Positions 8,914-62,924 of a DNA stretch of 64,000 nucleotides are shown here, piece by piece. The notes below the pieces were generated by a model. The model did no database searches, had not been told where the DNA came from, and was given only the letters and a program-made list of their open reading frames with translations. Both the position numbers and the translations under genes were made by a program. Numbering within the stretch: the stretch's first letter is position 1; each line of letters starts with the position of its first letter. Source of the DNA: Candidatus Moraniibacteriota bacterium (lineage in GTDB: Bacteria > Patescibacteriota > Minisyncoccia > Moranbacterales > UBA1568); assembly GCA_013334245.1 (NCBI GenBank), contig JAAXXZ010000004.1:127-64126 (forward strand). The letters are read 5' to 3'.

Positions 8914-9119
8914 ATGGTCGGCTTCATTATAGCACAATCTTCCTCTGATACGTCCGTTCCCGTGACATCCGTTCGGACCGTTTACCTCATGTTTCGGTCC
9001 GGTTCCCGTTCATTCCATCCAACCCGGTGTCGGGTCGGGCTTCGGGACCGTTTTGACTTCCGGTCCGCTCTCGGGTACAGTGGAGAGAGGAGGGGAGAGT
9101 TCGTCCATTTTCCGATACT

Positions 9120-9725: not shown

Positions 9726-9772
9726 ACGGCCTCGGCGGTCTTCGTTCCGACATGAGATAACGGCTCGTTCTT

Positions 9773-10882
9773 ATGTCTCCAATCGTTCTTATCGTGATCG
9801 TACTCGTCCTGGTCGCCGTGGCGGCCGTTTTCGTCATATCGTCTTCCAAGGAATCCCGCCGTCAGACCGCGGAAGACCGGAAATTCATGCTCGACCGGAT
9901 GGAAACGCTCGACCGTCGGTTGAGCCAGGAGATGCATCAGTTTTCCACGTCGGTATCGGGGCAGATCGGGACGCTGAATACGGCGCTCGACCGTCGGCTC
10001 GGCGAGAATACGGAACGGCTCGATTCCCGTCTCGACGGCGCGGCACGATCGTTCGCCGAGGTCCGTGCGGCGCTTGCCGAAGTGCGCGCCTCGAACAAAC
10101 AGATTCTCGAAGTGGGCAAGGAAGTCTCTTCGCTTCAGGAAATCCTACGCGCACCGAAGATGCGCGGCGGTTTCGGCGAGCTCATGCTTGGCAACCTGCT
10201 CTCGCAGATGCTTCCCAAGGAACACTTCGATCTCCAATACGGTTTCAAGAGCGGGGAGGCGGTGGATGCGGTCATCCGGCTCAAGGGCGGACTTATCAGC
10301 GTGGACTCCAAGTTCCCACTCGAGAATTTCAAGCGCATGATCGAGGCGAAAGGGGACGACGAGCGTCGTATCGCCAGGAGGCAATTCGTTTCCGACGTAA
10401 AAAAACACGCCGATTCCATCGCATCGAAATACATACTCCCGGAAGAGGGGACACTCGGGTTCGCGCTCATGTACATTCCCGCCGAAAACGTGTACTACGA
10501 GATCATCATCAAGGACGAGGACGGGACCGGATTGTCCGAATATTTCTTCGGGAAGCGGGTGATTCCCGTATCGCCGAATTCGTTCTATTCGTATCTCCAG
10601 ACGATCGCCATCGGGCTGCAGGGGATGCAGATCGAGAAGCGGGCGAAGGAGATCCTGGGACAGCTCGGCAAACTTTCGGTCGAGCATGGGAAGTTCCTCC
10701 GGGAATTCGAGGTGCTTGGCGGCCATATCGGGAGCGCGCACAAGAAATACGATGACGCGGAAAAGCGGCTCGGCAAGGTGGCCGATCAGCTCGAGCGGGT
10801 CCAAACATCGTCGGTCATCGTCGCGGAGGGAGACGAGCTGCTTCCTGCCGAGGTCGAATCCCTATCCGAACCGAACCTATGA
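9773..10882 (+). CDS. rmuC: DNA recombination protein RmuC
   Basis: N-terminal TM, a long coiled coil, and a C-terminal RmuC nuclease-like block ([13 protein letters not shown]). Confidence 0.8.
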
Positions 10883-38043: not shown

Positions 38044-38130
38044 GGAGAGATGGCCGAGCGGCTGAAGGCACCACACTGCTAACGTGGCATGGGGTAACAC
38101 CCATCGAGGGTTCGAATCCCTCTCTCTCCG
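38044..38130 (+). tRNA. tRNA-Ser (GCT), class II with a long variable arm
   Basis: GGAGAGA acceptor, anticodon loop CTGCTAA, long variable arm, T-loop GGTTCGAATCC. Confidence 0.85.
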
Positions 38131-38365
38131 CACAGAGGGACAAGCGACTCCGAGAGGGTCGCTTTTCCTTTTCCTTGCGGCGCTTTCGGCGGTTCGAAGG
38201 TGCCGTTTCCGGCACGGAGGGATGTTGCGTCTTTTGCGGGACTGTTTTTTCTTGCGTTACGGTATCGGCAGGAATCGTCTATTCTTATGGCATGATAACT
38301 GCTAAAATGAAATCAAAGGAAAACAAGAGCATTCGGAATACGTTATAGTACCTGAAAGGAAACAT

Positions 38366-39452: not shown

Positions 39453-39676
39453 CGGATAGGACTTTTTCGTGGTTCCTGACGACGATACCGAGCCTCTTTT
39501 TCTCAGGATAAGAAGGGGTCGGTATCGTTATAAATGGCGGGTCCGGAGAGGGTGTCAGAAAATTTTTTTCTTGTCGCCGAGAGGCGATAGCACGACGCGC
39601 CTGCCCGTAAACGGGTTGGCGTTTTTCAAAAACCCCTAAATTCTTAGTAATCCTTGCCTTTTCGCCCCAGAGGGGT

Positions 39677-42445
39677 ATGGTGGAGGTGTTAGTATCAGTA
39701 AAAAGGTACCTGATCCCTTTTCTGCTAAGCAATATGGCCACTGTATTGGACAAAATTGAAGTAATAAACGAAAAGATCAATAAGAATATTAGCATTCTTG
39801 GAAGTAGTCAGAGAGGTCTTGCATCTCAGGATATTCTTAAAAGCCTGCGTGATTTAATCGAGCATACTGCTGTTTTGATTCATGTGGGAAGTGAAGCAGA
39901 ATTCAACCGTGTTACAAAAGATGCGGGTATGTCCCACATCAAACAAGATCCAGGTAGGTATAGTTTTTTGTACAGATTTCACGACAGAATACAGCTAGCC
40001 TTGTCTCACTATGAGCCAAATGAGAGTGACGCGGAAATGCTTATGCTGGGCTACATGCACGACTTGTTTCTAGTAAAAAAATTTTACATTGAAAACTACA
40101 AACATAGCCTATTGCAGGAGTTGCGGAATTATCCGCTAAACCTTGATCCTGGTTTGTCGGAATACTACAAGGCGGTAATTGAAAAACTAAATAATGGTGA
40201 ATATGAAAAAGAGGCAGATAGAGCTGATTTTTACATTGATAGAGTAAAGCCTTTAATTATTGATGACGAACTGTATTACGAAGTAACCTTTCGTCCTGCG
40301 ACAAACAATTTTGCAAAGTTCAATAAAACAGTTGCCTTTACAAGGCAGAGAATTACAACAAATTACGCCCTCCGACTTAGATTGGCACGTACCCAAATAA
40401 ATGTATTTGACACTAAATCGCGCGCTTTGATTATTTTGGATTACGAAATATCGATACGACCTTGTGAGATACAACACCTTGGGATGATATTTGATCGAGG
40501 CTTTACATTCAATAGCAGAGACAAAGAGTACCAGAATTTAATGAGCGCTCTTAAGGTGAGTCAACTTACACTTTTGGAAATAGCCATTTTGTCCGAGGAG
40601 AGGTATGAAAAGTTTAAGCAGTATATAAGTGCTGGTACGAGTTCTGTAAACATCAAAAATGTCATTGAAAAATGTCGACAGGTAATTTTGAATAACAACG
40701 ACGGTGCAAATATACTCAGGTATCTCCTTACCAACCTAAACAATGTTGTATTAAAGAAACAACTCTTTCAAGAACCATGCGGTATTCTTTCCAATCTATA
40801 CTTGAAAAATAGTTGCAAAGTATTCGATACCATGCCTTTTTGCTCATCGTTGAAGGAACACAATCCAACGAAACTTTCATTAATCAATTGCATATCTCCA
40901 GAGGGCAGGCATCATGAATTTTTGGCAAGGCGCGTGAATCAAAACACAAGAACTCGGAAAATTCTCTATACTCCGTTAGATGAAGTTGAAAAAGTTTATG
41001 CTGTAGACAAGGAGATTGAGACCTTCAATTCAAAAGTGTGGTGGGGACATAAACCTAAGCGATTACTAAGAAAATACTCTAAATATATATACGAGCATGG
41101 TGCAGAGAGTGATTGTTACGAAATATATACCAAATTATTAAGTTTTACCGATTCTTGTATTAAAGACTATCAAACACTTATTGATTTGTGGCTTGATCAG
41201 CAAGTTGAAAATGTAATTGATTCAGAGCAGAAGAAACAGGCGCTACGGCAGCTCTTTGCTAAATCTAGCGTAGCTCTGATTTATGGATCAGCAGGTACAG
41301 GTAAAACAAAGATGATCGAATATATCGACAGTGTTTTTCTTGGCGAAAAGAAAGTTTTTTTATCCAACACATGGGCATCAGTGAATAACCTTAGACATAG
41401 AATTGGTGAAAGCGACAGACGTTTTTTTTCGACAGTTTCTTCCTACTTATGCCACATAGATCATTACGATGAGGCGGAAATACTTTTTATAGATGAGTGT
41501 AGTACGGTGTGTAATGACGATCTGCTGAAAGTATTAAAACATAAGAAGTTTAAGAAAATTGTGCTAGTTGGTGATGTGTACCAAATTGAAGCAATAGATT
41601 TTGGAAATTGGTTTTATCTCTGTAAGAATTTATTGCCCGAGCATTGTATTTTTGAACTAGATGACACACATCGAACTAAGAAAGAAGATCTGAAATTATA
41701 CTGGTCAGCTGTTCGGAATGCTGTTTATGAGGTTCGTGAAATTGCATCCAGAGGACAATTCTCTCAGCCAATCGACCAATTTATAAAAAGTTACAAAGAT
41801 AGCGAAGATCAAATTGTACTGTGTTTAAATTATGATGGATTGTACGGAATTAACAATTTAAACAAATTACTACAAGAAAAAAACCCAAATGAGGGAATAG
41901 ATTGGGGAAGTGTTCATACATATAAAGCTGGAGATCCGATTATTTTCACTGAGACATCGAAATATGCTCCTGTTTTGTACAACAATCTAAAAGGACGTAT
42001 AACAAAAATTACTGCTAGTAGTGACGAAATACAATTTGAAATAATAATTGATTATTCGCCCAACCCGTTTGATGCGCAGAGTCGCGGTATTAAATTTTTA
42101 GAAAATCTTCCAGAGGGAAAGTCCAAGATAGGTTTATCCGTCAGCAAACTAGAGAATGTCGATGAAGATTTAGATGATTCTGACAGATTAGTTCCATTCC
42201 AAGTATCCTATGCCACGTCTATTCATAAGGCTCAGGGTTTAGAGTATAAAACTGTAAAGCTTGTTTTTGTTGATGAAGTTCAAGATATGGTTACTCATAG
42301 CATCTTTTACACAGCTATAACCAGAGCAAAGGAAAGGTTAGAGATATATTGGTCGCCTGAAACTGCAAGCAAGGTATATGAGCGCATTAAATCAAATTTA
42401 AACAAAAAAGATGCGTGCATTTTTAAAAGCAAATTTAAGCTATAG
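39677..42445 (+). CDS. 922-aa protein: about 500-aa N-terminal domain of unknown function fused to a C-terminal RecD/Dda-like SF1 helicase core
   Basis: Walker A GSAGTGKT, Walker B ILFIDECS, motif III VLVGDVYQ, motif V/VI SYATSIHKAQGLEYKTV; about 35% GC versus a 60% backbone; alternative start ATG 39743. Confidence 0.7.
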   Translation: MVEVLVSVKRYLIPFLLSNMATVLDKIEVINEKINKNISILGSSQRGLASQDILKSLRDLIEHTAVLIHVGSEAEFNRVTKDAGMSHIKQDPGRYSFLYRFHDRIQLALSHYEPNESDAEMLMLGYMHDLFLVKKFYIENYKHSLLQELRNYPLNLDPGLSEYYKAVIEKLNNGEYEKEADRADFYIDRVKPLIIDDELYYEVTFRPATNNFAKFNKTVAFTRQRITTNYALRLRLARTQINVFDTKSRALIILDYEISIRPCEIQHLGMIFDRGFTFNSRDKEYQNLMSALKVSQLTLLEIAILSEERYEKFKQYISAGTSSVNIKNVIEKCRQVILNNNDGANILRYLLTNLNNVVLKKQLFQEPCGILSNLYLKNSCKVFDTMPFCSSLKEHNPTKLSLINCISPEGRHHEFLARRVNQNTRTRKILYTPLDEVEKVYAVDKEIETFNSKVWWGHKPKRLLRKYSKYIYEHGAESDCYEIYTKLLSFTDSCIKDYQTLIDLWLDQQVENVIDSEQKKQALRQLFAKSSVALIYGSAGTGKTKMIEYIDSVFLGEKKVFLSNTWASVNNLRHRIGESDRRFFSTVSSYLCHIDHYDEAEILFIDECSTVCNDDLLKVLKHKKFKKIVLVGDVYQIEAIDFGNWFYLCKNLLPEHCIFELDDTHRTKKEDLKLYWSAVRNAVYEVREIASRGQFSQPIDQFIKSYKDSEDQIVLCLNYDGLYGINNLNKLLQEKNPNEGIDWGSVHTYKAGDPIIFTETSKYAPVLYNNLKGRITKITASSDEIQFEIIIDYSPNPFDAQSRGIKFLENLPEGKSKIGLSVSKLENVDEDLDDSDRLVPFQVSYATSIHKAQGLEYKTVKLVFVDEVQDMVTHSIFYTAITRAKERLEIYWSPETASKVYERIKSNLNKKDACIFKSKFKL

Positions 42446-42530
42446 TAGAAACTTACGACATTAACATGAGTTACACAAAATCATTTTAAAAAATTGCACC
42501 AACAGCTTTTTAAAAATGAAGCGGAGAGTC

Positions 42531-42555
42531 AGAAAAGGGGTCAGGCACTTTTTTA
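42531..42555 (+). other. 24-nt motif GAAAAGGGGTCAGGCACTTTTTTA, 85 bp downstream of the helicase-like gene (copy A)
   Basis: 22 of 24 positions identical to 61014-61037 (copy B) downstream of the OLD-family gene. Confidence 0.5.
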
Positions 42556-42830
42556 TTCTCATCATTGATCTAATCAATTGAAATAATTTTCCAATGAGTT
42601 GTTGAGGCGATGCGGATGCGTTTTCCCTCAACCCAGCCCTTTCCCAACGGGAGAGGAGGTACAAGGTCGGTTTTCTGATATTGGGGCAAAGATTCCCGTT
42701 TCCACGGGAATGACAAAAACTGAATCGGATTCGAGAGTCGGAATATTGGAAGATGTGGTGTCGAATTGCCGAATTACCGATCTGTTATTATTCCGGTAGA
42801 TTGATTTCGATATCCTGAAATGAAAACGTT

Positions 42831-45021: not shown

Positions 45022-48000
45022 ATGAAGATAAACCGAGTCGTCTTAGTTCCGATTTTACTGGGTGGGTTGTTCATGTTTTCGTGCTCCGCTTCGGCGGCAA
45101 CGTTATGGGAAGACACCTTCGATCGCGCCGATGGTGCGGTGGGGAACGGGTGGGTCGGAACGGGTGACACCACAGCCGAAATTTCCAGCAACGCTCTTCA
45201 TAGGACCTCTTCCGACGGGTATACTATCTATTATAATCCAGCCGGTGGCACGCTTCCGGCAGATTATTATATTACGGTTACATTGCCGAATTCTCAAATC
45301 AGGAGTCATTTTTGGGGGATTATTGGAAGATATCTTCCGCCGGGTTCAGGCATGGGAAGCGGTAATAAGATTTTTTGGACCGATCAAGGCTTTATGTCAT
45401 CGGGTGTCGGAAATGCCGAGTATGAGAACAATTTTTCTTTGACGATGACAGGCGGATATCCGGAAAGCTGGTCGCTTGATCAGGATCATTCCGTGACTCT
45501 CCATTATCAGGATTCGAGGGTCACGGCCTATCTCGATGGGGAAGAATTGGGCTATTTTACAGACACAACGAATGATCAGGTCGGAACTGGAGTCGGGTTT
45601 GTTGGTGACAATGGAACCTTCCGTGATATTCGCGTGACTGATGATCTTCCAAAATATCTCCCGTTTGGGTCGGATGCGGTGGACCCGATCGTTTCAAATA
45701 TCTTCTCGACGACCACGGAGTCCGACGCGACAATTGTGTGGAATACGGATGAATTGACCCAGGTGACGATCGAATATGGCCTTACCGACGCATATGGAAG
45801 TTCCGTTTCCACCGAGGCCTGGACAACCAATCACTTGATGACGGTTAGCGGGCTCTCTGCTGGAACGACTTATCACTACCGCATCGTCTCGAACGATTTC
45901 GCCGGTAACGTAGCCGAGTCCTCAGACTATATATTATCAACGATAGCTTCCGGAGACGTGTATTGGACTGATGATTTTCATCGGGAATATGGTGCCGTGG
46001 AAAACGGATGGGTCGGTGTCAATTCGGCGGTTGGCCTCATTTCAAATGATATCTTGGAACGAACCGACGAATATCAATACCGGATTCTTTATAACCCAGC
46101 TGGTGGAGCTTTGCCGCAAAATTATTATCTGACGATGTTCGTTCCGCAGTCGACACTGGATGGAACTTTTTGGGGACTTATTGGCCGGTATTTTTCACCC
46201 GGTTCTGGTATGGGTACCGGAAACAAGGTGTTTTGGATGGATGGTGGAATTCAGTCGGCCGGAGTAGGAAATGCCGAGTTTGAGAATAATTTTTCTTTGA
46301 CGGTTACGGGGGGATATCCGGAAAGCTGGTCGCAAGATCGTGTGCATATGGTGACACTTGGCTATAATGGAAACACCGTTACCGTTTATCTTGACGGAGA
46401 AGAGCTCGGATATTTCACGGATACGACGAACAATCAGACTGGCACGGGAATCGGATTGGTCGGAGATGGCGGTGGTGACTTTTTTGTGCTCGGGACGAAA
46501 GTGACGCAAGCACTACCGGTTTTTTTGGCAGCCGGAGCAGAGCCGGACACAAATCCACCCACATTGTCACTGATAAGTGTCAATCCTGCCGAAACGACCG
46601 CCGCCGTTTCTTGGACGACAGATGAAGAAGCCAATTCATTTGTCGAATATGGATTGACGGACACATATGGGAACACCGCTTCTTCGGTTTCAATGACGAT
46701 GTCACATACTCTCGCACTTTCCGGGCTCACGGCTGGGACGACCTATCATTATCGTGTCGCTTCGACCGACGCTTCCAGCAATACGGCAACTTCAGAAGAT
46801 GCGACGTTTACGACCGATCCAGAAGGATCTACTCCGGAGGAAGTGGTGTTTCACACAACGGGTGCGACATTTTCCCCGATTTTGACAGTTGCGGACGGAG
46901 CCGTGATTGAATGGACTTTTCACGACGGGACTACGTCTAATTCAGCCTCGCCAACCAAAGCTTATGGGAGTACGGGAAACAGGGAAAACCGTTTGACGGT
47001 GACTCCGTGGAGTGCGCTGACCGAGGTGAATATCGGGTATGACGGAGGGGACGATGGGACGTTGCCAAATCCACACCTAGTACAACAAAATGTTACTGCG
47101 GTGGATGGTATGGAATATATGGCGCCGTATCTTCGCGTCTGGGCTTCATCGCAGAACCCCATAGCATCGCTTGATTTTTCCGATTTCATCTCCCTACGCA
47201 CCATTGAGTGTTTTCTCTGTCAGCAGATGACCTCAGTTGATCTTTCAAACACTCCATCGCTTGTCCGTGCGAATTTCGAGGATAATAACTTGCAGAGTCT
47301 CAATCTCTCGGAAAGTCCGGCTCTTGAGGATCTTCGCGGAGCGAACAATGGATATACGGAAATTGTCTGGGGGGATACCGGAGATAATGTGTGGCATATT
47401 TGCACGAGAGATAATCCTCAATTGAATGTAAATTTTCCTGATATGTCCCGATATCCACTTCTTGAGGAACTGTGGATCTGGAACGATAATCAAACTGGAA
47501 CGCTTGCTCCGACATCGTCCGCTCTCCGCTCGGTTCAGGCATTTGACAATCACTATACGGCAGCAGATTTTTCTGGGTTGTTTCCGTCCGGCCGGGCCGC
47601 CGAGGTGAATGTAAGCGGGAATGATCTGACGCATCTTGATGTTTCCGATAATCCTGGGCTTATGTGGCTTTATGCACAGGACAACGATCTTGATCAGGCG
47701 ACGGTTGATGCCGTACTCCACGATCTTGCAACGGTGCCAAACGGTCATAATTCCGGAGTGCTTGATTTGACTGGAAATGCGGAGCCATCGTTTTCAGGGC
47801 TTGATGACGTCTCCATTCTTGAAGCTCGAGGGTGGACGGTATCCGTGGACGGTGACGGTGTCCCCAGCGAGCCTATCGACATCTTGTACCTCAATACGTC
47901 TGCTGGATCTACGAGTGCGATTGTTTTTTGGAATACTACCAGGGAAGGGACATCGGTTATTGAGTATGGGACCGATACTCATTTTGGGTCGACTGTTTCT

Positions 48001-49647
48001 TCCGATGTAATGACTACATCGCACCATATTCTGTTGGAAAATTTACTTCCAGATACCTCGTATGTCTTCCGTGTGACGTCCGAAGATAGTGAAGGAGGCA
48101 TATTCAGTATATCAGAGAGTACTTTCCGAACGAGAGCCACGGGAGTGACCTATTGGGAAGACGACTTTCATCGGGCAGACGGATCCGTTTCGAACGGGTG
48201 GGTTTCGGTGAACGGCGCGGTGGGCGAGATCGAAAGCGAGTCACTGCTCCGCTCCGATCAGGATGACTATCGTATTTTGTATCATCAGACGGACGGGGAT
48301 TTGCCTGCGGACTATTTTGTCACCATGACGATACCGAATTTGACCGCCGGCCGTAGCTTTTGGGGACTGGTCGGACGGTATCTGCCACCGGGTGCGGATA
48401 ACGGGACCGGTACGCAGGTGTTTTGGGGCGATCAGGGTCGCGATGTGTTGAACCCGGGCAATCCGTATTGGGATAGCGTCTTGCCGATTACGGTGACGGG
48501 TGGGATTCCGGAAACATGGAACGAAAATCGTGTACATGCGGTCACGCTCGGATATGCCGGCGATGCGGTGACGATTTACCTTGACGGCGAGGCGTATGGA
48601 ACGCTCCAGAATAACACGAATATACAGACAGGGACCGGTATCGGTATCGTCGGTGACGGCCGCGGAACGGCATTCGGCGTGCTTGATGTTCGTGTGACGG
48701 ATTTTCTTCCGGATTATTCGGAACAGGTCGGCGACGAAGCTCCAGAGGTGACTTCTTTTGTCCTTCCTGAGACGTCTAATTCTTTGGTCGTTCCGATTTC
48801 CCTATTTACCGCAACGGACGATATCGGCATCACAGGATACCTGATTACGGAATCGCCGGACAATCCCGCATACGATGATCCGATGTGGAGCGTGTCGGTT
48901 CCTACCATGTTCAATTTTTCAACTGAGGGGGAGAAGACCCTTTATGCGTGGGTGAAGGACGGGTCGGGGTCGATATCGTCTTCTCTGAGCGAAACGGTTA
49001 TCGTGCGGATCGTTGATTCCGTGGCAGATGACGATACGGAAGATGACGGTGAAGAACGCGAGGAAGCGCCCGATGACTTCGAGATATCGAACGTGAAATA
49101 CGGGGTAATTGGTTCGGATAGCGTTCGGATATCGTTTTTGACGAGTAATGAGACGCGGGCGACTATCCGATATGGGACGGAATCGAACCGGTTACATCGG
49201 AAGCGAACCGAAGATCGGAAAGGGAAGCGACACACTGTTATCTTGCGAGATCTTGTCCCTGGAAAACGGTATTTCTTTCGGGTTTCCGCCGAAGACGATT
49301 ATGACCAGGATGATCGGAGCAGGATTCATTCCGTTGAACTCCCATCGCTTTCGAAAGCAGCGCCAGTCGTTTCATCCGCAGTTTCGGTGGGAAAGCCTGT
49401 GAAGATTCCGGTTTCAGTTCCGGGCGACACCCCGGTTTTTCCCGATGTTTTGCCTGAATCCGCGCCGCAGGACCTTGATAGCGAAACGCATAATACAGAG
49501 GATGTTGGTTCGGAAAGTAAAGGAATGGAGTTGACCGATAGAAATGAAAATACGGTGTCATCGTCGCCGGACGATTTGATCCCATCCACCTCGAGTGGAG
49601 CCTCGTCATTTGTCTGGTGGAACCCTTTCACCTGGTTTAAAAAATAA
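45022..49647 (+). CDS. Giant secreted surface protein with three LamG/ConA-like lectin modules alternating with FN3 domains and an LRR-like segment
   Basis: Signal peptide; three copies of W.DDFHR.DG.V.NGWVG...FWGL.GRY..PG...G.G...FW.D.G; FN3 blocks (YHYRV); LRR-like LSNTPSL..NLSESPALEDL; GC about 48%. Confidence 0.6.
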   Translation: MKINRVVLVPILLGGLFMFSCSASAATLWEDTFDRADGAVGNGWVGTGDTTAEISSNALHRTSSDGYTIYYNPAGGTLPADYYITVTLPNSQIRSHFWGIIGRYLPPGSGMGSGNKIFWTDQGFMSSGVGNAEYENNFSLTMTGGYPESWSLDQDHSVTLHYQDSRVTAYLDGEELGYFTDTTNDQVGTGVGFVGDNGTFRDIRVTDDLPKYLPFGSDAVDPIVSNIFSTTTESDATIVWNTDELTQVTIEYGLTDAYGSSVSTEAWTTNHLMTVSGLSAGTTYHYRIVSNDFAGNVAESSDYILSTIASGDVYWTDDFHREYGAVENGWVGVNSAVGLISNDILERTDEYQYRILYNPAGGALPQNYYLTMFVPQSTLDGTFWGLIGRYFSPGSGMGTGNKVFWMDGGIQSAGVGNAEFENNFSLTVTGGYPESWSQDRVHMVTLGYNGNTVTVYLDGEELGYFTDTTNNQTGTGIGLVGDGGGDFFVLGTKVTQALPVFLAAGAEPDTNPPTLSLISVNPAETTAAVSWTTDEEANSFVEYGLTDTYGNTASSVSMTMSHTLALSGLTAGTTYHYRVASTDASSNTATSEDATFTTDPEGSTPEEVVFHTTGATFSPILTVADGAVIEWTFHDGTTSNSASPTKAYGSTGNRENRLTVTPWSALTEVNIGYDGGDDGTLPNPHLVQQNVTAVDGMEYMAPYLRVWASSQNPIASLDFSDFISLRTIECFLCQQMTSVDLSNTPSLVRANFEDNNLQSLNLSESPALEDLRGANNGYTEIVWGDTGDNVWHICTRDNPQLNVNFPDMSRYPLLEELWIWNDNQTGTLAPTSSALRSVQAFDNHYTAADFSGLFPSGRAAEVNVSGNDLTHLDVSDNPGLMWLYAQDNDLDQATVDAVLHDLATVPNGHNSGVLDLTGNAEPSFSGLDDVSILEARGWTVSVDGDGVPSEPIDILYLNTSAGSTSAIVFWNTTREGTSVIEYGTDTHFGSTVSSDVMTTSHHILLENLLPDTSYVFRVTSEDSEGGIFSISESTFRTRATGVTYWEDDFHRADGSVSNGWVSVNGAVGEIESESLLRSDQDDYRILYHQTDGDLPADYFVTMTIPNLTAGRSFWGLVGRYLPPGADNGTGTQVFWGDQGRDVLNPGNPYWDSVLPITVTGGIPETWNENRVHAVTLGYAGDAVTIYLDGEAYGTLQNNTNIQTGTGIGIVGDGRGTAFGVLDVRVTDFLPDYSEQVGDEAPEVTSFVLPETSNSLVVPISLFTATDDIGITGYLITESPDNPAYDDPMWSVSVPTMFNFSTEGEKTLYAWVKDGSGSISSSLSETVIVRIVDSVADDDTEDDGEEREEAPDDFEISNVKYGVIGSDSVRISFLTSNETRATIRYGTESNRLHRKRTEDRKGKRHTVILRDLVPGKRYFFRVSAEDDYDQDDRSRIHSVELPSLSKAAPVVSSAVSVGKPVKIPVSVPGDTPVFPDVLPESAPQDLDSETHNTEDVGSESKGMELTDRNENTVSSSPDDLIPSTSSGASSFVWWNPFTWFKK
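45098..48690 (+). repeat. Three copies of an about 530-bp coding repeat (LamG-like module) at about 45098, 45960 and 48150
   Basis: About 75% nucleotide identity between modules 1 and 2, readable directly from the sequence. Confidence 0.5.
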
Positions 49648-54480: not shown

Positions 54481-54502
54481 TTGAATGATAATGGAGGGAA
54501 AT

Positions 54503-55081
54503 ATGAAACGACTGGGACCGGTGCAGGAAAAGACGCTTCTCATCCTTCTTGGTGTCATCGCGCTTGGGGGTTCGCGCACGATCGTGCGGCAGGCCAGGCT
54601 GGTTTCGGAGCTCCGAAAGGAATGGAAAAAGATCGACCGGAGGAGCGTCGCGCGTTCGCTGAGGCGCCTTTCCGAGGAGAAGCTCATTTCCGAGAAGGTC
54701 TTGCCGGATGAGACCGTCCATTTCGCGCTCACCTCGGAAGGGCGTCGGAAAGCGAGTTTTCTGAACCTGTTCGGTTCGGCCATCACATTCAGGAAGCCGA
54801 AAAAATGGGATGGAAAATGGCGGGTTGTCGCGTTCGATATTCCCGAGAAGAGCCGGTCATTCCGCCGCATCTTGCGCGAGCATCTTCATGAAGCGGAATT
54901 CTATCAGTTGCAGCAAAGCGTGTTCGTATCGCCATATCCTTTCGAGGAGCCGTTTGCGAAGCTCGTGCGGCTGTATGATGCCGAGCCGTACGTCAGGATC
55001 ATGACGGTTTCCTGGATGGATGACGAACTGAAATTGAGGCGCATATTTTTCGGACGTCGCAGGAATCCTTCGAAAGGGTGA
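54503..55081 (+). CDS. PaaX-like winged-helix transcriptional regulator
   Basis: C-terminal block KWDGKWRVVAFDIPEKSRSFRRILREHL...QQSVFVSPYP matches the PaaX C-domain pattern; SD GGAGGG upstream. Confidence 0.55.
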   Translation: MKRLGPVQEKTLLILLGVIALGGSRTIVRQARLVSELRKEWKKIDRRSVARSLRRLSEEKLISEKVLPDETVHFALTSEGRRKASFLNLFGSAITFRKPKKWDGKWRVVAFDIPEKSRSFRRILREHLHEAEFYQLQQSVFVSPYPFEEPFAKLVRLYDAEPYVRIMTVSWMDDELKLRRIFFGRRRNPSKG

Positions 55082-55111: not shown

Positions 55112-55147
55112 ACTTTTGAGAAGAGTGTGATTTTTCGAATACGGATA

Positions 55148-55162
55148 CCCGCTTTACAATAG
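55148..55162 (+). promoter_or_regulatory. CCCGCTTTACAATAG motif copy 3 with G-rich leader GGGGAGTAGAAAGGGGGTGAAAGGGG
   Basis: Shares the motif and an extended leader with copy 4. Confidence 0.4.
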
Positions 55163-55200
55163 GGTAATTGGGGAGTAGAAAGGGGGTGAAAGGGGTGGGG

Positions 55201-55390
55201 ATGAAGGCATCCGATCTCGTTTTGGGTTAGGGCTGCTCATCGAGGTCGAGCGATTGTCGGACGCAGAAAACGACGAAGCGGTCCAGGAAGACCTGAAAGC
55301 CTTTCTCCTGTCACTCGGCATCGGCAAAATGGACATCGTCACCAAGGGCTACGATACGCTTTTGTATGAGGCGGGAAAATTCGCTTGTTA
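55201..55390 (+). pseudogene. Internally deleted duplicate of the CYTH gene: promoter, leader and first codons fused to the last about 160 bp
   Basis: 55233-55390 is about 90% identical at nucleotide level to 58969-59124; the reading frame is closed after 9 codons (MKASDLVLG*). Confidence 0.6.
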
Positions 55391-57839: not shown

Positions 57840-58474
57840 CCACGTTCCCTATGAGACTTATACTTGGCTCGGATATGAGCTTTCTTCTGAAATACGGGTA
57901 CGACCTGACCGGAATTTCGAAGGCGGATATGCGGATCGGGTATGTGACGACAGGGATAAAGGGAGTGCGCACGAAGGAATTTTTCGAGAACGTGGAACGA
58001 CAGATCGTGGAGATCGGATACGATTTCGAGAAGTTCGATATTGAAGGAAAAAGCGTGGAAGAAATGAGGTCGTTCTTCGCGGACAAGAACGTGATCCATA
58101 TCGAAGGCGGTAATACGTTCTATCTATTGAAAGCCATCCGGGAAACCGGTTTCGCCCCAGTGCTTGATGAGCTCCTCAAAGAGGGGAAAGTCTATATCGG
58201 TACGAGTGCGGGATCCTATATAATGTGCCCGTCGATCGAAGTGGCGGATTGGGACGAAACCGGAAAAAGCCGGTTCGGAATGACCGACTTCACCGCTCTC
58301 GGGTATGTCCCATTCGTTCTGAAAGTGCATTACAAGGATGAGAAGGAAGAAACCGTGAGGGAAAAGATGAAGACTGTGCACCATCCGCTCCGATTACTTC
58401 GTGACGGGCAAGGCATCCTCGTCGACAACGGCGTCGAAACCTTCGTCGGTGACGGAGAAGAAACGGTGTTATAG
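57835..58474 (+). CDS. Peptidase E (S51 family)
   Basis: GTSAGS nucleophile region and IHIEGGNTFYLL; ATGA overlap with the preceding stop codon. Confidence 0.75.
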
Positions 58475-58484
58475 GTGAATTATA

Positions 58485-58499
58485 TCCGCTTTACAACGG
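58485..58499 (+). promoter_or_regulatory. TCCGCTTTACAACGG motif copy 4 with the same G-rich leader as copy 3
   Basis: Upstream of the CYTH gene at 58549. Confidence 0.4.
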
Positions 58500-58548
58500 C
58501 GTGTTTGGGGAGTAGAAAGGGGGTGAAAGGGATGGATATTCCGTTCCG

Positions 58549-59124
58549 ATGGTGGGGTATGTCATTAGTACCGAAATGAAGGAAATCGAGGTCAAAGCAC
58601 GGATACGCGATATCGACACGCTGACCGGAGTGCTTGCCGCCAAGGGGTTCGTATTCGGCGAACCCGCGGTCCAAAACGACGTGATATTCCTGCCGGCCGG
58701 GATCGAGTTCCCGGAAATCACCAAAGGGGTGCCGGTCGTGCGTGTGCGGAACGCGGACGGCGTTTTTACCCTGACACTCAAGATGCGCGTCATCGCCGGG
58801 AAGGAACTCATAAAGCTGGAGAAGGAAGTGAATGTGAGCGACGACAAGACGGCCATCGAGATCGTCTCGCTCATGGGATTTCACGAGGTGATACGAGTCG
58901 GCAAGAAACGGATGGAATGCGAACACGACGGCGTGACCGTCTGTATCGACGATGTGACCGGACTCGGGGCGTTCATCGAGGTCGAGCGATTGTCGGACGC
59001 AGAAAACGGCGAAGCGGTCCAGGAAGACCTGAAAGCCTTCCTCCTGTCGCTTGGCATCGGCACAGACGACATCATCACCAAAGGCTACGACACGCTTTTG
59101 TATGAGAAGAAGAAACCGTGTTAA
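58549..59124 (+). CDS. CYTH-domain protein (CyaB-like), paralogue 2
   Basis: MKEIEVKARI E.E.K motif; intact parent of the 55201-55390 fragment; a short 15-codon uORF in another frame starts at 58533. Confidence 0.65.
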   Translation: MVGYVISTEMKEIEVKARIRDIDTLTGVLAAKGFVFGEPAVQNDVIFLPAGIEFPEITKGVPVVRVRNADGVFTLTLKMRVIAGKELIKLEKEVNVSDDKTAIEIVSLMGFHEVIRVGKKRMECEHDGVTVCIDDVTGLGAFIEVERLSDAENGEAVQEDLKAFLLSLGIGTDDIITKGYDTLLYEKKKPC

Positions 59125-59179
59125 AACGCGATTGGAAGAGTATGAATGAATATAATCCATAATACAGTTTCATGAGTCT

Positions 59180-60946
59180 ATGCGATATATAAAGTTTCTG
59201 ATTCGTAATTATAAAGGAATAAAGTCATTAGAGTTGGATTTAGATTTATTCCCCGATCATAAAATCTATACACTAGTTGGTCTAAATGAATCGGGGAAAA
59301 CAACCATACTTGAAGCAATAAATGATTTTGAATTTGATGTCTCAGTTAATAAGCGGCATCTGTTAATACCGAAGAGTTCGGCGGGAGGTTTTACTGGAGA
59401 TATCGCAATAAAAGCAACGCTTCAATTTTCTGAAGATGATAAAGGGAGAATAATTGCCTTCATTCGGTCGAGGATTAAGGTAAGTGAAGTGTTTGTCTCT
59501 GAAACTTTAATCATAGAACGAAAATATAGTTTTAAAAACTCTACGCCGTATGAGTCTAAAAGAACATACGAAAAATATGTAAAAATAAAAAAGACTGCAA
59601 AAGGAAAGCCAGTTGATTTGGATGAAAGTATATCCAAAGAACTGTGGAGTTTTATTAAGGAAACGATGTTTCCTGAGATAATCTTTTATCGTGATTTCCT
59701 TTCTAAATTTCCGGAGAAGATTTACTTAGATGCAGAAGATCCTAAAGATAAGAACTATCTATCAATTATTGAAGATATTCTTACTGCTATAAATCCTGAT
59801 TATAACGTTCAAAATAGTCTCTTAGACAGACTGGACGATTCAACTGATGCTGCAAAAAAACAAGCGCTTGAAGCAGTCGAGAATGACATGGGCGCGAAGA
59901 TTTCTAAAGTAGTGTTTGACGCATGGAACAAGATACTAAACGTAAGTAAGAAAGAAATTGTTGTTAAGGCAGAATATGATGCCGAGAAGGGAAGATATTA
60001 TCTTCGATTGAGCGTAAAAGATGGTCATCAAACTTACGCCGTTGCTGAGCGGAGTCTAGGATTTCGATGGTTTTTCACTTTTCTTTTATACACAGAATTT
60101 CGAAAGGAAAGGATAAAAACTTCAGGAGAAATCTTGTTTATTTTGGATGAGCCAGCATCAAATCTTCATCAGACTGCGCAACAAAGCTTACTTGAAACAT
60201 TTCGTACAATAACAAGCAAATCACGACTAATATATACAACACATAGTCATCATTTGGTGAATCCAGAATGGTTAAGTTCCGCATATATTATTCGAAACAA
60301 AGGTCTTAAGTATAATGAGAGTGATGATTATAATCTAACGAAGACGGAAATTGAAGCATTTAAGTACAAGCAATTTGTTTCAAAATACCCGACCGAAACC
60401 TCGTATTTTCAGCCGATTTTGGATGTGTTGGATTATAAGCCAGGCTTACTTGAGCTGATTCCCAATATCGTAATAACAGAAGGAAAATTCGACTATTTTA
60501 CCTTTAGATATTTTAAAGAGATAGTTTTCTCGGACTTGACTGATGGCTATAGATTTTATCCTGGAATGGGCGCTTCAAGCTTAGACCTACCTATTTCCTT
60601 ATATGAATCATGGGGTAAAGGATATTTGGTTTTACTTGATTCGGATAAGGAGGGCCGTGATCAAAAGGAGCGTTATATTAAAGATATAAGCGATACTCAG
60701 CATATCTATACTCTTGAGGATTGTTTTTCAGATTTAAAAAATTCAACGACTGAAAAAGTATTTACTGAAACGGAAAAAATTGAAATCTCTAAGGAGTTTA
60801 ACAGTGAGCTTACTGAATATAATAAAAACGCTTTTAATACGGGAATTCAGATTCTGTTAATGCAAAAACGTATTCCTGACTATTTAACTGATGAAACAAA
60901 GAAAAAGATGAGGAAGATTATCGAATTTATCAACGGTAAAATATAA
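59180..60946 (+). CDS. OLD-family nuclease (N-terminal ABC-type ATPase plus C-terminal Toprim)
   Basis: Walker A GLNESGKTT, Walker B ILFILDEPASNLH, H-loop TTHSHH; Toprim Glu (ITEGKFD) and DxD (LLDSDKEG); about 33% GC. Confidence 0.7.
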   Translation: MRYIKFLIRNYKGIKSLELDLDLFPDHKIYTLVGLNESGKTTILEAINDFEFDVSVNKRHLLIPKSSAGGFTGDIAIKATLQFSEDDKGRIIAFIRSRIKVSEVFVSETLIIERKYSFKNSTPYESKRTYEKYVKIKKTAKGKPVDLDESISKELWSFIKETMFPEIIFYRDFLSKFPEKIYLDAEDPKDKNYLSIIEDILTAINPDYNVQNSLLDRLDDSTDAAKKQALEAVENDMGAKISKVVFDAWNKILNVSKKEIVVKAEYDAEKGRYYLRLSVKDGHQTYAVAERSLGFRWFFTFLLYTEFRKERIKTSGEILFILDEPASNLHQTAQQSLLETFRTITSKSRLIYTTHSHHLVNPEWLSSAYIIRNKGLKYNESDDYNLTKTEIEAFKYKQFVSKYPTETSYFQPILDVLDYKPGLLELIPNIVITEGKFDYFTFRYFKEIVFSDLTDGYRFYPGMGASSLDLPISLYESWGKGYLVLLDSDKEGRDQKERYIKDISDTQHIYTLEDCFSDLKNSTTEKVFTETEKIEISKEFNSELTEYNKNAFNTGIQILLMQKRIPDYLTDETKKKMRKIIEFINGKI

Positions 60947-61013
60947 TTTGGACATTCAGATAATGGTCTATATTCAATATTTCGAATAAATTCCCCCTAC
61001 TTGTCGCGTATCC

Positions 61014-61037
61014 GAAAAGGGGTCAAGTACTTTTTTA
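61014..61037 (+). other. 24-nt motif GAAAAGGGGTCAAGTACTTTTTTA (copy B), 68 bp downstream of the OLD gene
   Basis: Matches copy A at 42531-42555 at 22 of 24 positions. Confidence 0.5.
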
Positions 61038-61140
61038 ACGTCTTCTCGACAGACCATCGGAAATATGCCGGATATTAAGATGTGAAAAATGCAGGCGATG
61101 ATTGATAAATATTTCTATAATTAAATTGTAATTAAAAAGT

Positions 61141-61773
61141 ATGTCATATTGCTCGATGTGTGGAACCAAGGCAAATGATGGCGCAATCTTTTGTTCTAAG
61201 TGTGGATCGAATTTGCAAAAGGGCCAACCCTCTGATCTTGAGGTAAAAGAAATTCGGTCAGAAAGTAATATCAGTTTTTTTTCCATATCAAACAAGCGTC
61301 TTGCTCTGTTTTCTGTTATCACGTTCGGCCTATACGAGATATTTTGGTTTTATAAAAATTGGAGTGCAGTAAAAATGGCCGAAGGCAAGAAGATCGCACC
61401 ATTCTGGAGAGCTATATTTGCTGTATTTTTCTGTCACTCACTTTTTAAGAAAGTTCTTGAATCAGCTAAAAGTCATTCATATACCAAATCGTATTCTCCT
61501 GGTTGGCTAGCTGCAGGGTATATTATTATTCTTTTTATTAATAATGCTTTGAGTAAAGCAGAATCTACTGATATAAGTACTCTTTTGTTGTTACTGTTTT
61601 CTTTGATTTCATTTTTGCCTTTGTTGCCAGTCCAAAATGCGATTAACTATAATAATGAACAATTAAAGGGTGCGATGCCGTTGAAACATGGTTTCTCTGG
61701 TGGGGAAGTTACAATTATAGTAGTGGGTATCATTTGGTTTTTTCTGGTACTCGTTGGTACGTTCTCGGCGTGA
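61141..61773 (+). CDS. Zinc-ribbon-anchored membrane protein (DUF4234-like)
   Basis: N-terminal CSMCG...CSKCG ribbon, GLYEIFWFYKNW motif, 4 TM; AT-rich like the OLD gene. Confidence 0.5.
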   Translation: MSYCSMCGTKANDGAIFCSKCGSNLQKGQPSDLEVKEIRSESNISFFSISNKRLALFSVITFGLYEIFWFYKNWSAVKMAEGKKIAPFWRAIFAVFFCHSLFKKVLESAKSHSYTKSYSPGWLAAGYIIILFINNALSKAESTDISTLLLLLFSLISFLPLLPVQNAINYNNEQLKGAMPLKHGFSGGEVTIIVVGIIWFFLVLVGTFSA

Positions 61774-62081
61774 TCGGAAAAGATTAAGGTTCCTTTTTAG
61801 CCTCCCTCTCGCCATACCGCCGGAAACATCTCAGGTGCACGGAAGAGGGGATTCGAATGCAGACGGAAGGGAAGGAATGTGCGATACTATCGATATGACA
61901 CAGGACGAGACATACGAGCGGATACTGGAAGCAGCGAGGAACGATTCCAAAGTCCTCGGTTTTGTGCTGACCGGAGGAGGTTGGAAATTTATCTGACTCA
62001 ATGATGCATAGACGATCGCCGTCACGGATGACAGTATGAGAATCTTGGAGACGTGAATGAATAAAGTGTTTCTGAACCGTT

Positions 62082-62741
62082 ATGAATAACAACGACTATC
62101 GCAACAGGATCGTGGAGTCATACCTGCCGGAATCGTACCGGGTCTGGTTTGAAGAAGAGGCGAAATACCTCGCCGCTCATGTTGCCCGTTCGGCCGTCGT
62201 GCTCGATGTCGGCTCCGGGGACGGCCGTACCATAAATGATCTGCTGCCGGTCACGAAGAATATAACGGGTATCGATCACGACACTGCCGCTATCGAGCGG
62301 GCCAAGGAACGGTTCAAGGATTTCCCATCGGTGCATGTTGAAACTGCGGACGCGACGAAGATTCCGTTTGAAGATGGGCGATTCGATTTTGTCACGTGCA
62401 TGGGGGTGCTCATGAACCTTGGGGAACACAGGACGGAGGCGCTTCGGGAAATGAAACGGGTAGTGAAGGATGGCGGAAAGATCATTTTGGATTCCTTTTC
62501 GGAACGATCGTTAATGGAGCGTCTGAAAGCGTATGAGGCTGCCGGTGTCCCGGTGAAACGAATCGAGGGCGGAGCGGTGTTTTTCGACGAGAGTATCGGT
62601 GATAATATTTCGGAGCAGTTTACCGAAGGAGAATTGAGAAATATTTTTGATCGGGAGGGATTGATCATCGAAGATATGTATGATGGTGGAATCGTATACA
62701 TATTTACCGTTTCGAAGAAAAATACCAGTCTCATACAATAA
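62082..62741 (+). CDS. Class-I SAM-dependent methyltransferase
   Basis: Motif I VLDVGSGDGRT, motif post-I GIDHD, motif II FDFVTCMGVL. Confidence 0.75.
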   Translation: MNNNDYRNRIVESYLPESYRVWFEEEAKYLAAHVARSAVVLDVGSGDGRTINDLLPVTKNITGIDHDTAAIERAKERFKDFPSVHVETADATKIPFEDGRFDFVTCMGVLMNLGEHRTEALREMKRVVKDGGKIILDSFSERSLMERLKAYEAAGVPVKRIEGGAVFFDESIGDNISEQFTEGELRNIFDREGLIIEDMYDGGIVYIFTVSKKNTSLIQ

Positions 62742-62759
62742 TCCGTTAGCCGTAATCGT

Positions 62760-62924
62760 ATGGAAAGGATAAAGGTGGAGCAGCACGGGTTCACGGCGTT
62801 CTCGTGGTGCGCCGGGTGGCTGTTCACACTCGGGTTTTTGCACCTCACTTTTTGGAAGGGGGTGCTGGCGATCGCGCTGTGGCCGTACTTCATCGGCCTC
62901 GCGGTGAGTGCCTTGGCGAAGTAG
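62760..62924 (+). CDS. Possible 54-aa two-TM peptide
   Basis: Short ORF between the methyltransferase and the CDPS-like gene; two hydrophobic helices. Confidence 0.25.
   Translation: MERIKVEQHGFTAFSWCAGWLFTLGFLHLTFWKGVLAIALWPYFIGLAVSALAK

Follow-up and report, generated by a model that had tools for sequence, protein, structure and literature searches.

A divergent, Class 1-style OLD-family gene on an AT-rich islet in a Moranbacteria-like genome

The window analyzed here, a 64,000-nucleotide stretch of a Candidatus Moraniibacteriota contig, contains an AT-rich islet of foreign composition at positions 59125..61790 (~2.67 kb, assigned to no strand), which follows a gene for a CYTH-domain protein and holds two genes and the spacer between them. 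ORF A (59180..60946, + strand; 588 aa) and ORF B (61141..61773, + strand; 210 aa) are both present as listed in the first-pass annotation, a reading of this DNA from its letters alone, and the spacer (60947..61140, no strand; 194 bp) has a GC content of 0.33, as AT-rich as the genes on either side. GC is 0.56–0.59 in the CYTH gene, 0.31–0.38 over 59200–61800, and ~0.5 again past 61800, in agreement with the drop to about 33% that had been placed directly after the CYTH gene; the flanks of the islet as a whole are at about 0.50–0.59. A comparison at ~59125–61790 puts the islet at 0.33–0.37 and its flanks at 0.50–0.56. The shift is also seen at third codon positions (GC3 of 0.295 in ORF A, 0.297 in the spacer, and 0.336 in ORF B, with 0.54–0.75 in the flanking genes). 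The adjacency of ORF A and ORF B, their common strand, and their shared foreign composition indicate that they were acquired together, and with a gap of 194 bp they may be cotranscribed in this genome. Promoter and terminator prediction gives no strong call in the spacer, and an RNA element there was rejected: the fold is no better than that of shuffled sequences (z-score of +1.18), and an Rfam scan of 58400–62800 has no match in the spacer and none elsewhere that reaches or approaches a gathering score.

Similarity to two host relatives, L164 and L165, ends at ~59108–59130, the left edge of the islet. This junction carries the 16-nt sequence AGAAGAAACCGTGTTA (59108..59123, + strand), a second copy of which lies at 58456–58471 in the 3' end of an S51 peptidase gene. 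Similarity among five copies of the CYTH 3' end breaks at the left-junction copy, and similarity of the S51 region with L165 stops within the other, and the repeat is a probable recombination scar. To the right of the islet lies the truncated 5' part of a gene whose GC content is host-like (61881..61978, + strand; found by blastn and alignment to L165), with two copies in L165 (14856–14940 and 15452–15549; 86–87% by blastn), each preceding other small genes. In L164 the islet is absent and the CYTH gene is followed directly by the S51 gene, and in L165 the slot is filled by an unrelated low-GC gene of 594 aa, with a low-GC DRT2 islet close by. The composition shift, the empty site, and the alternative cargo together support horizontal acquisition of the islet, and it sits in a plastic, rearrangement-prone locus with repeated exchange of cargo genes. 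The islet is not an assembly chimera, because the same order of ORF A and ORF B is recovered in two independent read-set assemblies (L161 and L162), the first of which extends to the methyltransferase gene.

The N-terminal part of ORF A (residues 5–360; 59192..60259, + strand) is an ABC-type ATPase head that matches AAA_15 (73.9 bits against a Pfam cut-off of 32.1; 2.5e-20; residues 5–360), AAA_21, and SMC_N. Motif scanning and alignment A1, which comprises 26 ORF A homologues at 43–73% identity, place the Walker A motif (P-loop) at G34-LNESGKT41 (59279..59302), the Walker B motif at L319-FILDE324 (60134..60151), and the H-loop at T354-H-S (60239–60247), all on the + strand. Walker A residues G34, N36, E37, S38, and K40 are invariant among the 26 sequences, as are D323, E324, T354, H355, S356, and H357, and the ATPase head recognized initially, with its Walker A/B motifs and H-loop, is well founded. 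The secondary structure of the AlphaFold2 (AF2) model has a helical insert at approximately residues 188–250 within the head. In TsOLD the dimerization domain is likewise set inside the ATPase (PMC7049728), and from its position we infer that the insert is the equivalent of the OLD dimerization domain.

The C-terminal part of ORF A comprises a Toprim core (approximately residues 426–515; 60455..60724, + strand) and a helical region recognized from invariant columns and model helices (approximately residues 516–588; 60725..60943, + strand). The Toprim glutamate motif is E434-G-K-F-D438 (60479..60493, + strand; alignment A1 and hhalign), whose acidic residues may coordinate metals A and B, and the DxD motif is D487-S-D489 (60638..60646, + strand; alignment A1); E434, G435, D438, D487, and D489 are invariant across the 26 sequences. 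The catalytic residues of BpOLD are E400, E404, D455, and D457 (PMC6755086); the spacing of E434 and D438 matches that of E400 and E404, and D487 and D489 lie 53 and 55 residues past the Toprim glutamate, compared with 55 and 57 in BpOLD. An hhalign comparison with P2 Old runs from the N terminus to the EGKxD/E Toprim motif and sets ITEGKFD of ORF A opposite LVEGKTE, with a probability of only 24%. Two residues of the helical region, E525 and K549, are also invariant and, judged by order and spacing, are possible counterparts of BpOLD E508 and K562.

Sequence profiles detect little of this C-terminal part. PF20469 (OLD-like_TOPRIM) reaches only 14.8–15.4 bits on ORF A, below its cut-off of 23.2 (E of 0.03–0.04), PDB profile searches with alignments A1 and A3 return ATPase relatives or nothing, a C-terminal profile finds no match among solved structures by sequence, and hhalign of that profile against P2 Old does not confirm the Toprim domain. 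No PADLOC model matches the C-terminal 228 aa, and the PADLOC 'Old' model meets the ATPase part only (9.3e-12; residues 6–244). Predicted structure is more informative. The full-length AF2 model (pLDDT of 85) has TsOLD (PDB 6p74; 6e-17) as its top Foldseek match in the PDB, with GajA at 1e-14 to 4e-15, in alignments of 640–690 columns that span the whole chain. Structural neighbours of the ATPase part also include OLD, GajA, PtuA, Rad50, and SMC heads, and when the C-terminal domain is searched alone, the best six matches are without exception C-terminal regions of OLD proteins, separated by a gap from the noise. In the predicted model, residues 426–515 carry the Toprim fold. The proposed C-terminal Toprim domain with its catalytic glutamate and DxD is upheld, although its sequence signal is subthreshold and structure prediction is needed to see it, and the OLD architecture proposed for the 588-aa protein stands with it. 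Standard pipelines would give such a protein only the name 'AAA family ATPase' because the Toprim domain of this type escapes both Pfam and PADLOC, and Class 1-type OLD genes would be under-counted.

ORF A is a divergent, Class 1-style member of the known OLD family, and the locus is probably best read as a stand-alone OLD-family ATPase–Toprim nuclease gene accompanied by a passenger, ORF B, that arrived on the same fragment. The genes flanking ORF A include neither a UvrD-like helicase nor a DUF4435 partner, as had been stated. The single-gene OLD is itself a described class, Class 1 (PMC10568477, PMC7049728), and the absence of a partner is therefore not novel in itself. Class 1-type OLD genes are estimated to occur in 0.45% of genomes (PMC13261556), and three of the proteins, P2 Old, Vc OLD, and YbjD, have antiphage phenotypes (PMC10568477, PMC13261556). 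ORF A resembles the Class 1 proteins (P2 Old, TsOLD, Escherichia coli YbjD/OldB, and Vibrio cholerae OLD) in having no helicase, reverse transcriptase, or DUF4435 partner, in its ABC ATPase head with an insert followed by a C-terminal Toprim domain, in an EGKxD/E motif that aligns with that of P2 Old, and in length (588 aa, compared with 586 aa for P2 Old). It differs from them in its very low sequence similarity (phmmer of ORF A against 6p74 gives an E value of 0.0017, over the ATPase only), in its Toprim domain being under the Pfam threshold, and in the ~65-aa helical region with invariant E525 and K549 that follows the Toprim domain, whereas the Class 2 helical domain is said to be missing from TsOLD.

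The Class 2 OLD proteins, including Gabija GajA of Bacillus cereus and the OLD C-terminal regions of Burkholderia pseudomallei and Xanthomonas campestris (PDB 6nk8 and 6njv–x), share the two-domain architecture and the order of residues (the glutamate, an acidic residue at +4, DxD ~55 residues later, and, within the helical region, a lysine preceded by an acidic residue), but ORF A has no GajA-level match in Pfam or PADLOC beyond the ATPase. The gene downstream of ORF A is ORF B, and a helicase resembling UvrD/PcrA/Rep follows neither here nor in 80 loci of the family, with no helicase family recurrent among the neighbours. A split Gabija system comprising ORF A and a 922-aa SF1 helicase encoded elsewhere in the window was rejected; the two genes are 17 kb apart, and the helicase matches PDC-S53 over its full length. 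The retron-associated Class 3 is not indicated either, with no reverse transcriptase among the flanking genes and no Rfam family close to or above threshold within 58400–62800.

ORF A is probably an antiphage gene, a prediction made by analogy with its characterized relatives. By the same analogy, the ATPase insert would mediate its dimerization or oligomerization, and binding or hydrolysis of ATP at the Walker A/Walker B/H-loop site would gate the Toprim active site. This site would cut nucleic acid by two-metal catalysis, with E434, D487, and D489 at metal A and D438, possibly together with E525, at metal B. Its substrate would be either DNA, which TsOLD, BpOLD, and GajA cleave, or tRNA, the reported target of P2 Old, and the outcome would be single-gene antiphage or abortive-infection protection.

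Homologues of ORF A of ~590 aa number more than 3484, in ~965 clusters at 50% identity, and are distributed sporadically across phyla; some carry the JGI annotation 'ATP-dependent endonuclease of OLD family'. Neighbourhoods were compared at the 80 best genome loci and 6 further loci of closest relatives, giving 86 independent loci with proteins at 37–73% identity to ORF A. As expected of a single-gene Class 1 OLD, no neighbour is universally conserved in the 80 best loci or among 139 flanking proteins, in which the sole recurrent families are the HsdS (13–14) and HsdR (6–8) subunits of type I restriction-modification (R-M) systems; the top 25 flanking Pfam families include no helicase, DUF4435, reverse transcriptase, DUF4234, or zinc-ribbon family. 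An ORF A-type gene lies within a type I R-M operon in 13 of the 80 loci (~16%), always on the same strand and most commonly in the order hsdM-hsdS-X-hsdR; in a few loci X instead separates hsdR from hsdS or hsdM from hsdS. Three of the seven closest relatives are so placed (L001, at 73% identity, and P0005 and P0006, at 70%); neighbours of other close relatives include a type IIG/ISP enzyme, which the ORF A-type gene follows, a PIN protein, and a Cas4-like nuclease, and further neighbours in the family include DNA methylases, GmrSD, and type II restriction endonucleases. The ORF A subfamily is divergent in sequence, widespread, and without an obligatory partner gene.

These neighbourhoods bear on the alternative that fares best, in which proteins of the ORF A family work with type I R-M systems, for instance as a back-up upon inhibition of restriction, and the window copy is an orphan without its R-M partner. 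Unrelated defence genes are known to land in type I R-M operons, and embedding there need not mean functional coupling. A functional link would have a precedent in PARIS, an ABC ATPase and Toprim system that senses an antirestriction protein and is triggered by Ocr (PMC9122126, PMC11464382), and it would fit the recurrence of R-M genes as the sole recurrent neighbours, including those of the closest relatives. However, an R-M probe has no match within ±5 kb in 62 of the 80 loci (~78%), many neighbours in the family are housekeeping genes, and no R-M gene is near ORF A in the window, and this alternative is considered unlikely. In a related form, the ~590-aa family would be an OLD class of its own, not described so far, whose marks are a divergent Toprim domain, a helical C terminus, and recurrent insertion between hsdS and hsdR. 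It would then be linked to restriction and stand behind it as a second line of defence that is active, for example, on R-M inhibition, with the window copy again an orphan. Class 1 OLD genes are described as not being near other candidate defence genes (PMC10568477), and although no known defence gene adjoins ORF A in the window, the family with ~16% of its loci embedded in type I R-M operons may be no typical Class 1; a separate class is nevertheless doubtful. The frequency of this embedding is a lead toward an R-M-linked function.

The PARIS comparison also raises the alternative that ORF A is a single-polypeptide PARIS, an AriA–AriB fusion that would act in abortive infection by cleaving tRNA. 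Fused AriA–AriB proteins exist (PMC9122126), AriB likewise belongs to the Toprim nucleases (PMC11464382), PARIS shares with ORF A an AAA_15-type ABC ATPase and occurrence in defence-island and R-M contexts, and the best PADLOC matches of ORF A are AriA models (4.7e-23 and 2.2e-14). The matches are nevertheless confined to residues 5–360, similar in length and position to those of the generic AAA_15 and AAA_21 families, and OLD C-terminal regions rank first structurally, with no PARIS chain among the top 50. PARIS is called when AAA_15 or AAA_21 is accompanied by DUF4435 (PF14491) at 27 bits or above, whether on a partner protein or in a fusion (PMC9122126); AAA_15 is present here, but DUF4435 is found neither in the C-terminal 228 aa at E values up to 10 nor in ORF B. 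A fused PARIS is thus very unlikely. When scanned with PADLOC models, as the first-pass annotation had proposed, the ATPase head of ORF A meets the AriA and Old models, but ORF B has no match.

ORF B contains an N-terminal zinc ribbon (residues 3–25; Zn_Ribbon_1, 30 bits in Pfam) and a membrane domain, recognized from Pfam, alignment A2, and hydropathy. DUF4234 (PF14018) matches residues 56–83 at 31.4 bits, above its cut-off of 25.3, but the match is limited to profile positions 8–35 of 70, and a YxxYWFYKNW motif is apparent in alignment A2. Hydropathy gives five conserved hydrophobic segments, so that of the earlier description as a zinc-ribbon protein with a four-transmembrane, DUF4234-like domain, the zinc ribbon and a partial DUF4234 match stand, but the count of four does not. 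Small DUF4234 membrane proteins with an N-terminal zinc ribbon, which are multi-pass and common in candidate phyla radiation (CPR) and Gram-positive genomes, share the Zn_Ribbon_1 domain and the DUF4234 match around YxxYWFYKNW, but only 28 residues of ORF B match, and its own family has five hydrophobic segments and 83 detectable homologues, mostly from CPR bacteria.

Adjacency, a common strand, a gap of 194 bp without a clear terminator, and equal foreign composition also allow ORF A and ORF B to be viewed as a new two-gene system, in which the nuclease senses or cleaves and the membrane protein is a coeffector (for example, in membrane disruption) or a sensor. Many defence systems use membrane effectors. 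They are noted among such systems in the PARIS work (PMC9122126), and this would suit ORF B as a partner. Co-occurrence elsewhere, which the first-pass annotation raised in proposing a distinct defence configuration, is not found, however. No relative of ORF B is near a relative of ORF A in any of the 86 independent loci, the nearest exceptions being one weak 32-aa match in L050 and a weak DUF4234 match 3.2 kb upstream in L169, and no ORF A-like sequence is present at 80 metagenome loci of ORF B relatives, 52 of which extend 600 bp or more upstream; elsewhere the pair occurs only in reassemblies of the same organism. The recurrent neighbours of ORF B relatives are other zinc-ribbon proteins of CPR bacteria (21 of 69 loci), and no association with defence is found. 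A two-gene system is highly improbable, and since the claimed pairing fails, the combination of an OLD gene with a membrane protein should not be listed among new defence systems; ORF B is a passenger typical of CPR bacteria, outside the nuclease mechanism, and not a partner. The weak SMC_N and RecF N-terminus matches and the structural resemblance of Rad50 and SMC heads to the ATPase part might point to a housekeeping ATPase of genome maintenance that resembles RecF, SMC, or Rad50 and has no nuclease core. This reading can be dismissed almost entirely, as the SMC_N and RecF matches are confined to the P-loop region (residues 8–48), the C terminus is a Toprim domain with invariant acidic residues, and the gene is foreign in composition, absent from close host relatives, sporadic across phyla, and associated with R-M, with neither vertical inheritance nor conserved synteny with replication or repair genes seen.

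With ORF A taken as a stand-alone OLD-family gene, a single 2.67-kb AT-rich fragment would have brought it and ORF B into a CPR (Moranbacteria-like) genome of ~55% GC, and the donor would have been a low-GC bacterium, probably also of the CPR. Carriage of the family by phages or plasmids was considered and dropped, with one weak phage match and plasmid matches at no more than 28% identity. A pairing of OLD with the upstream CYTH gene was likewise set aside as coincidence: the window CYTH gene has host composition and occurs in relatives without the islet, the CYTH gene before the ORF A homologue in L169 and L170 is only 30% identical, and no further locus among those surveyed has both. A second AT-rich islet of the window is itself a defence candidate, PDC-S53 (1019 bits), which the SF1-helicase gene at 39677–42445 (922 aa) matches over its full length. 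A CPR bacterium of ~55% GC thus gathers AT-rich single-gene defence islets, with the OLD-like gene and PDC-S53 here and DRT2 in a relative, at a site prone to rearrangement. An integron or attC-like cassette array was considered for this region on account of the repeats between codirectional genes, but these are duplicated gene ends together with a promoter-like 54-nt element, rather than hairpin attC sites.

The AT-rich islet (∼2.67 kb, ∼59125-61790) contains the two genes reported in the first-pass annotation, ORF A (59180-60946, + strand; 588 aa) and ORF B (61141-61773, + strand; 210 aa), with a CYTH gene (58549-59124) upstream and a SAM-methyltransferase gene (62082-62741) downstream. The drop in GC content described after the CYTH gene is real, with values of 0.56-0.59 in CYTH falling to 0.31-0.38 across ∼59200-61800 and returning to ∼0.5 before the methyltransferase gene. 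Third-position GC is 0.295 in ORF A, 0.297 in the spacer, and 0.336 in ORF B, compared with 0.54-0.75 in the flanking genes, and the three therefore form a single block of foreign composition. The A-B arrangement recurs in two independent read-set assemblies, one of which extends to the methyltransferase, and this shows that the block did not arise by a chimeric join. The exact ORF A protein is on deposit as an 'AAA family ATPase' of a Candidatus Moranbacteria MAG.

ORF A residues 5-360 match the ABC-type AAA_15 and AAA_21 Pfam families, and the best PADLOC matches (AriA, AbiLi, Old, GajA, and PtuA) are all limited to this ATPase head. The C-terminal 228 residues have a sub-threshold match to OLD-like_TOPRIM (E = 0.03-0.04; 15 bits, with the cut-off at 23) and no match to DUF4435 (Pfam) or in PADLOC; from sequence alone, the Toprim domain called previously is plausible but unproven. 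In an alignment of 26 family members (43-73% identity), invariant positions include the P-loop (G34…K40), Walker B (D323/E324), and H-loop (T354-H357) of the ATPase, together with E434-G435…D438, D487-x-D489, E525, and K549 in the C-terminal part. BpOLD has a two-metal site formed by E400, E404, and D455/D457, after which a helical region contributes E508 and K562 (PMC6755086); the ORF A acidic residues E434, D438, and D487/D489 have the same order and spacing, and E525 and K549 are, judged by spacing only, putative equivalents of E508 and K562. The profile alignment of ORF A with Old of phage P2, though weak (probability 24%), spans the N terminus to ITE434GKFD, which faces LVEGKTE of P2 Old.

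An AlphaFold model of ORF A made from the 26-member alignment is confident (pLDDT 85) and aligns at full length with its top PDB match, the Thermus scotoductus Class 1 OLD nuclease (6p74; E = 6e-17), and with Gabija GajA (E of about 1e-14 to 1e-15). When the C-terminal domain is modelled separately (pLDDT 88) and searched alone with Foldseek, the C-terminal regions of OLD proteins make up all of the top six matches (Bp 6nk8; Xcc 6njw, 6njx, and 6njv; Ts 6p74; E = 2e-4 to 3e-3), with an abrupt drop to noise after them. These results identify ORF A as a genuine, sequence-divergent OLD-family ATPase-Toprim protein, as the first-pass annotation proposed; a housekeeping RecF/SMC protein is rejected.

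A profile search with the C-terminal domain yields 965 clusters at 50% identity (221 at E ≤ 1e-30), and the domain is almost always the C terminus of 590- to 650-aa proteins. The family is present in CPR, Bacteroidota, Proteobacteria, Cyanobacteria, Acidobacteriota, and one archaeon, with essentially none in sequenced phages and only distant relatives on plasmids. Scanning one genome per species gave 385 relatives, and the loci of the best 80 (37-73% identity, ±5 kb) were surveyed by clustering flanking ORFs, identifying them with Pfam, and probing them across loci, with all 139 immediate neighbours scanned in bulk; six further closest metagenomic relatives (69-72% identity) were also looked up. 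Type I restriction-modification (R-M) is the only recurrent context among the 80 loci and 139 neighbours. In 13/80 loci a type I R-M operon encloses the relative, which has the same orientation as the operon; the order is mostly hsdM-hsdS-X-hsdR (X being the ORF A relative), and in a few loci X separates hsdR from hsdS or hsdM from hsdS. The closest genomic relative (73%) is embedded in this way, as are two of the six metagenomic ones, both in hsdM-hsdS-X-hsdR operons. The other four of the six have as neighbours a PIN protein, a type IIG/ISP restriction enzyme, a Cas4-like PD-(D/E)XK nuclease, and, in the last, an rve-type integrase gene upstream on the opposite strand with an N6_N4 methylase ∼1 kb downstream. 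Another DNA methylase is nearby in five more loci, and YhcG, RhuM, GmrSD, and type II REases turn up occasionally; UvrD helicase, reverse transcriptase, DUF4435, DUF4234, and zinc-ribbon families are not among the 25 commonest neighbour Pfam families. The R-M probes match nothing in about three quarters of the loci. An R-M-linked OLD class is a possible but improbable reading of the subfamily.

In the literature grouping (PMC10568477, PMC7049728, PMC9122126), a Class 1 OLD is a single gene, a Class 2 OLD (Gabija) has a UvrD-like helicase after it, a Class 3 OLD adjoins a retron reverse transcriptase and ncRNA, and PARIS combines AAA_15 or AAA_21 with DUF4435, as two genes or fused. ORF A was checked against the hallmarks of Class 2, Class 3, and PARIS and fits none of these groups; in genomic context it is a single gene, as in Class 1. 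It differs from Class 1 in having a post-Toprim helical region at the C terminus, resembling Class 2 enzymes, and in the frequent placement of its family in R-M operons, Class 1 genes being described as isolated. These two departures are variations within a known kind, and ORF A is a Class-1-style OLD of a divergent, poorly annotated subfamily.

The analysis shows the fold and motifs of ORF A, its single-gene context, its horizontal acquisition, and its association with defence genes, and from these its activity, trigger, and target are predicted. By analogy with TsOLD, BpOLD, P2 Old, and GajA, it probably oligomerises via an insert in the ATPase domain; nucleotide binding or hydrolysis may gate the two-metal Toprim nuclease, which would cut DNA, or tRNA, on phage infection. 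tRNA cleavage is reported for P2 Old, as cited in PMC13261556.

The pairing of ORF A with ORF B, put forward earlier as a distinct defence configuration, fails in both directions. With 83 ORF B family sequences as queries, no family member is found within ±5 kb in the loci of the best 80 of 385 ORF A relatives, the sole signal being one weak match of 32 residues, and none adjoins the ORF A homologue in the six closest metagenomic relatives (0/6). Reciprocally, 120 ORF A family members detect no ORF A-like sequence in 80 metagenomic ORF B loci (33-61% identity, 423 kb in total, 52/80 with at least 600 bp upstream). ORF B relatives adjoin other N-terminal zinc-ribbon proteins in 21/69 metagenomic loci, including M48 and trypsin-like peptidase domain fusions and DUF6804. 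The zinc ribbon (CxxC…CxxC) annotated in ORF B is borne out, as is a partial DUF4234 match, explained by a conserved YxxYWFYKNW motif, but there are five conserved hydrophobic segments and not four. ORF B has no PADLOC match, and its best interpretation is as a membrane protein typical of CPR, carried along on the same DNA fragment as ORF A. Same-strand clusters of ORF B-family and other N-terminal zinc-ribbon genes are common in the compared loci L081 to L100 (e.g., L081 5172-7903, L088 866-2510, L089 262-2401, and L085 488-2946), and look like a CPR membrane-protein gene cluster.

The islet was acquired horizontally and is in a plastic region. In related locus L164 (CYTH 94% identical), an S51 peptidase gene directly follows CYTH and there is no islet, and in L165 (CYTH 82%) the post-CYTH slot contains an unrelated 594-aa gene (8686-10470, GC 0.42-0.45) with no match in Pfam or PADLOC. 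A second low-GC islet of L165 (12451-13887, 0.35-0.39) encodes a defence reverse transcriptase of the DRT2 type (359 bits), and a transglutaminase-like protein comes next. At L169 3364-5770, and also in L170, which represent an unrelated CPR genome that is AT-rich throughout, an ORF A homologue (70% identity) has a CYTH-domain gene immediately upstream, only 30% identical to that of the window, and a Cas4-like PD-(D/E)XK nuclease downstream; the CYTH-OLD adjacency is probably chance because it is confined to two organisms.

In all copies, homology at the CYTH 3' end stops at window 59108-59110, inside a 16-nt sequence, AGAAGAAAC[G/C]GTGTTA, that is present at 58456-58471 and 59108-59123, terminates the S51 and CYTH genes, and at both copies marks the exact break of homology to relatives. 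An internally deleted CYTH remnant (55145-55378), with the upstream element and last ∼140 nt, precedes a PPDK-like gene, and a 54-nt promoter-like element, TTTACA…TAGAAA…GGGGGTGA (58482-58535), is duplicated in the window and has three further copies in L165. The remnant, the 16-nt repeats, and the 54-nt element indicate repeated recombination at the locus. A ∼95-nt 5' gene fragment (61881-61978) encoding a protein N terminus (…DETYERILEEARNDSEVLGFALTGG…) occurs twice more in L165 (14856-14940 and 15452-15549), each copy ahead of a different small gene: in the window the methyltransferase, in L165 a NUDIX gene and a methyltransferase of another kind. The fragment resembles a duplicated end of a target gene or a cassette boundary. 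Directly upstream of the CYTH remnant is a gene (54485-55081) whose 198-aa product combines a central PaaX_M (Cas2-like) domain with an HxlR-like HTH; L165 has an 82% orthologue.

The window's other AT-rich islet (∼39650-42700; GC 0.31-0.40, GC3 0.34) is ∼1.5 kb downstream of tRNA-Ser (38044-38131) and has the same composition as the OLD islet. It codes for a 922-aa protein (39677-42445, + strand) that has a C-terminal SF1 helicase (AAA_30, UvrD_C_2) and matches, at full length, the PADLOC single-gene defence candidate PDC-S53 (1019 bits). Together with the DRT2 islet of L165, this islet indicates that the lineage repeatedly acquires AT-rich single-gene defence cargo, in keeping with a role of ORF A in defence. 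A coding segment of 50-190 nt is present in three related copies at 45106-48426, with spacings of 858 and 2190 nt, which suggests tandem paralogous genes or repeated domains.
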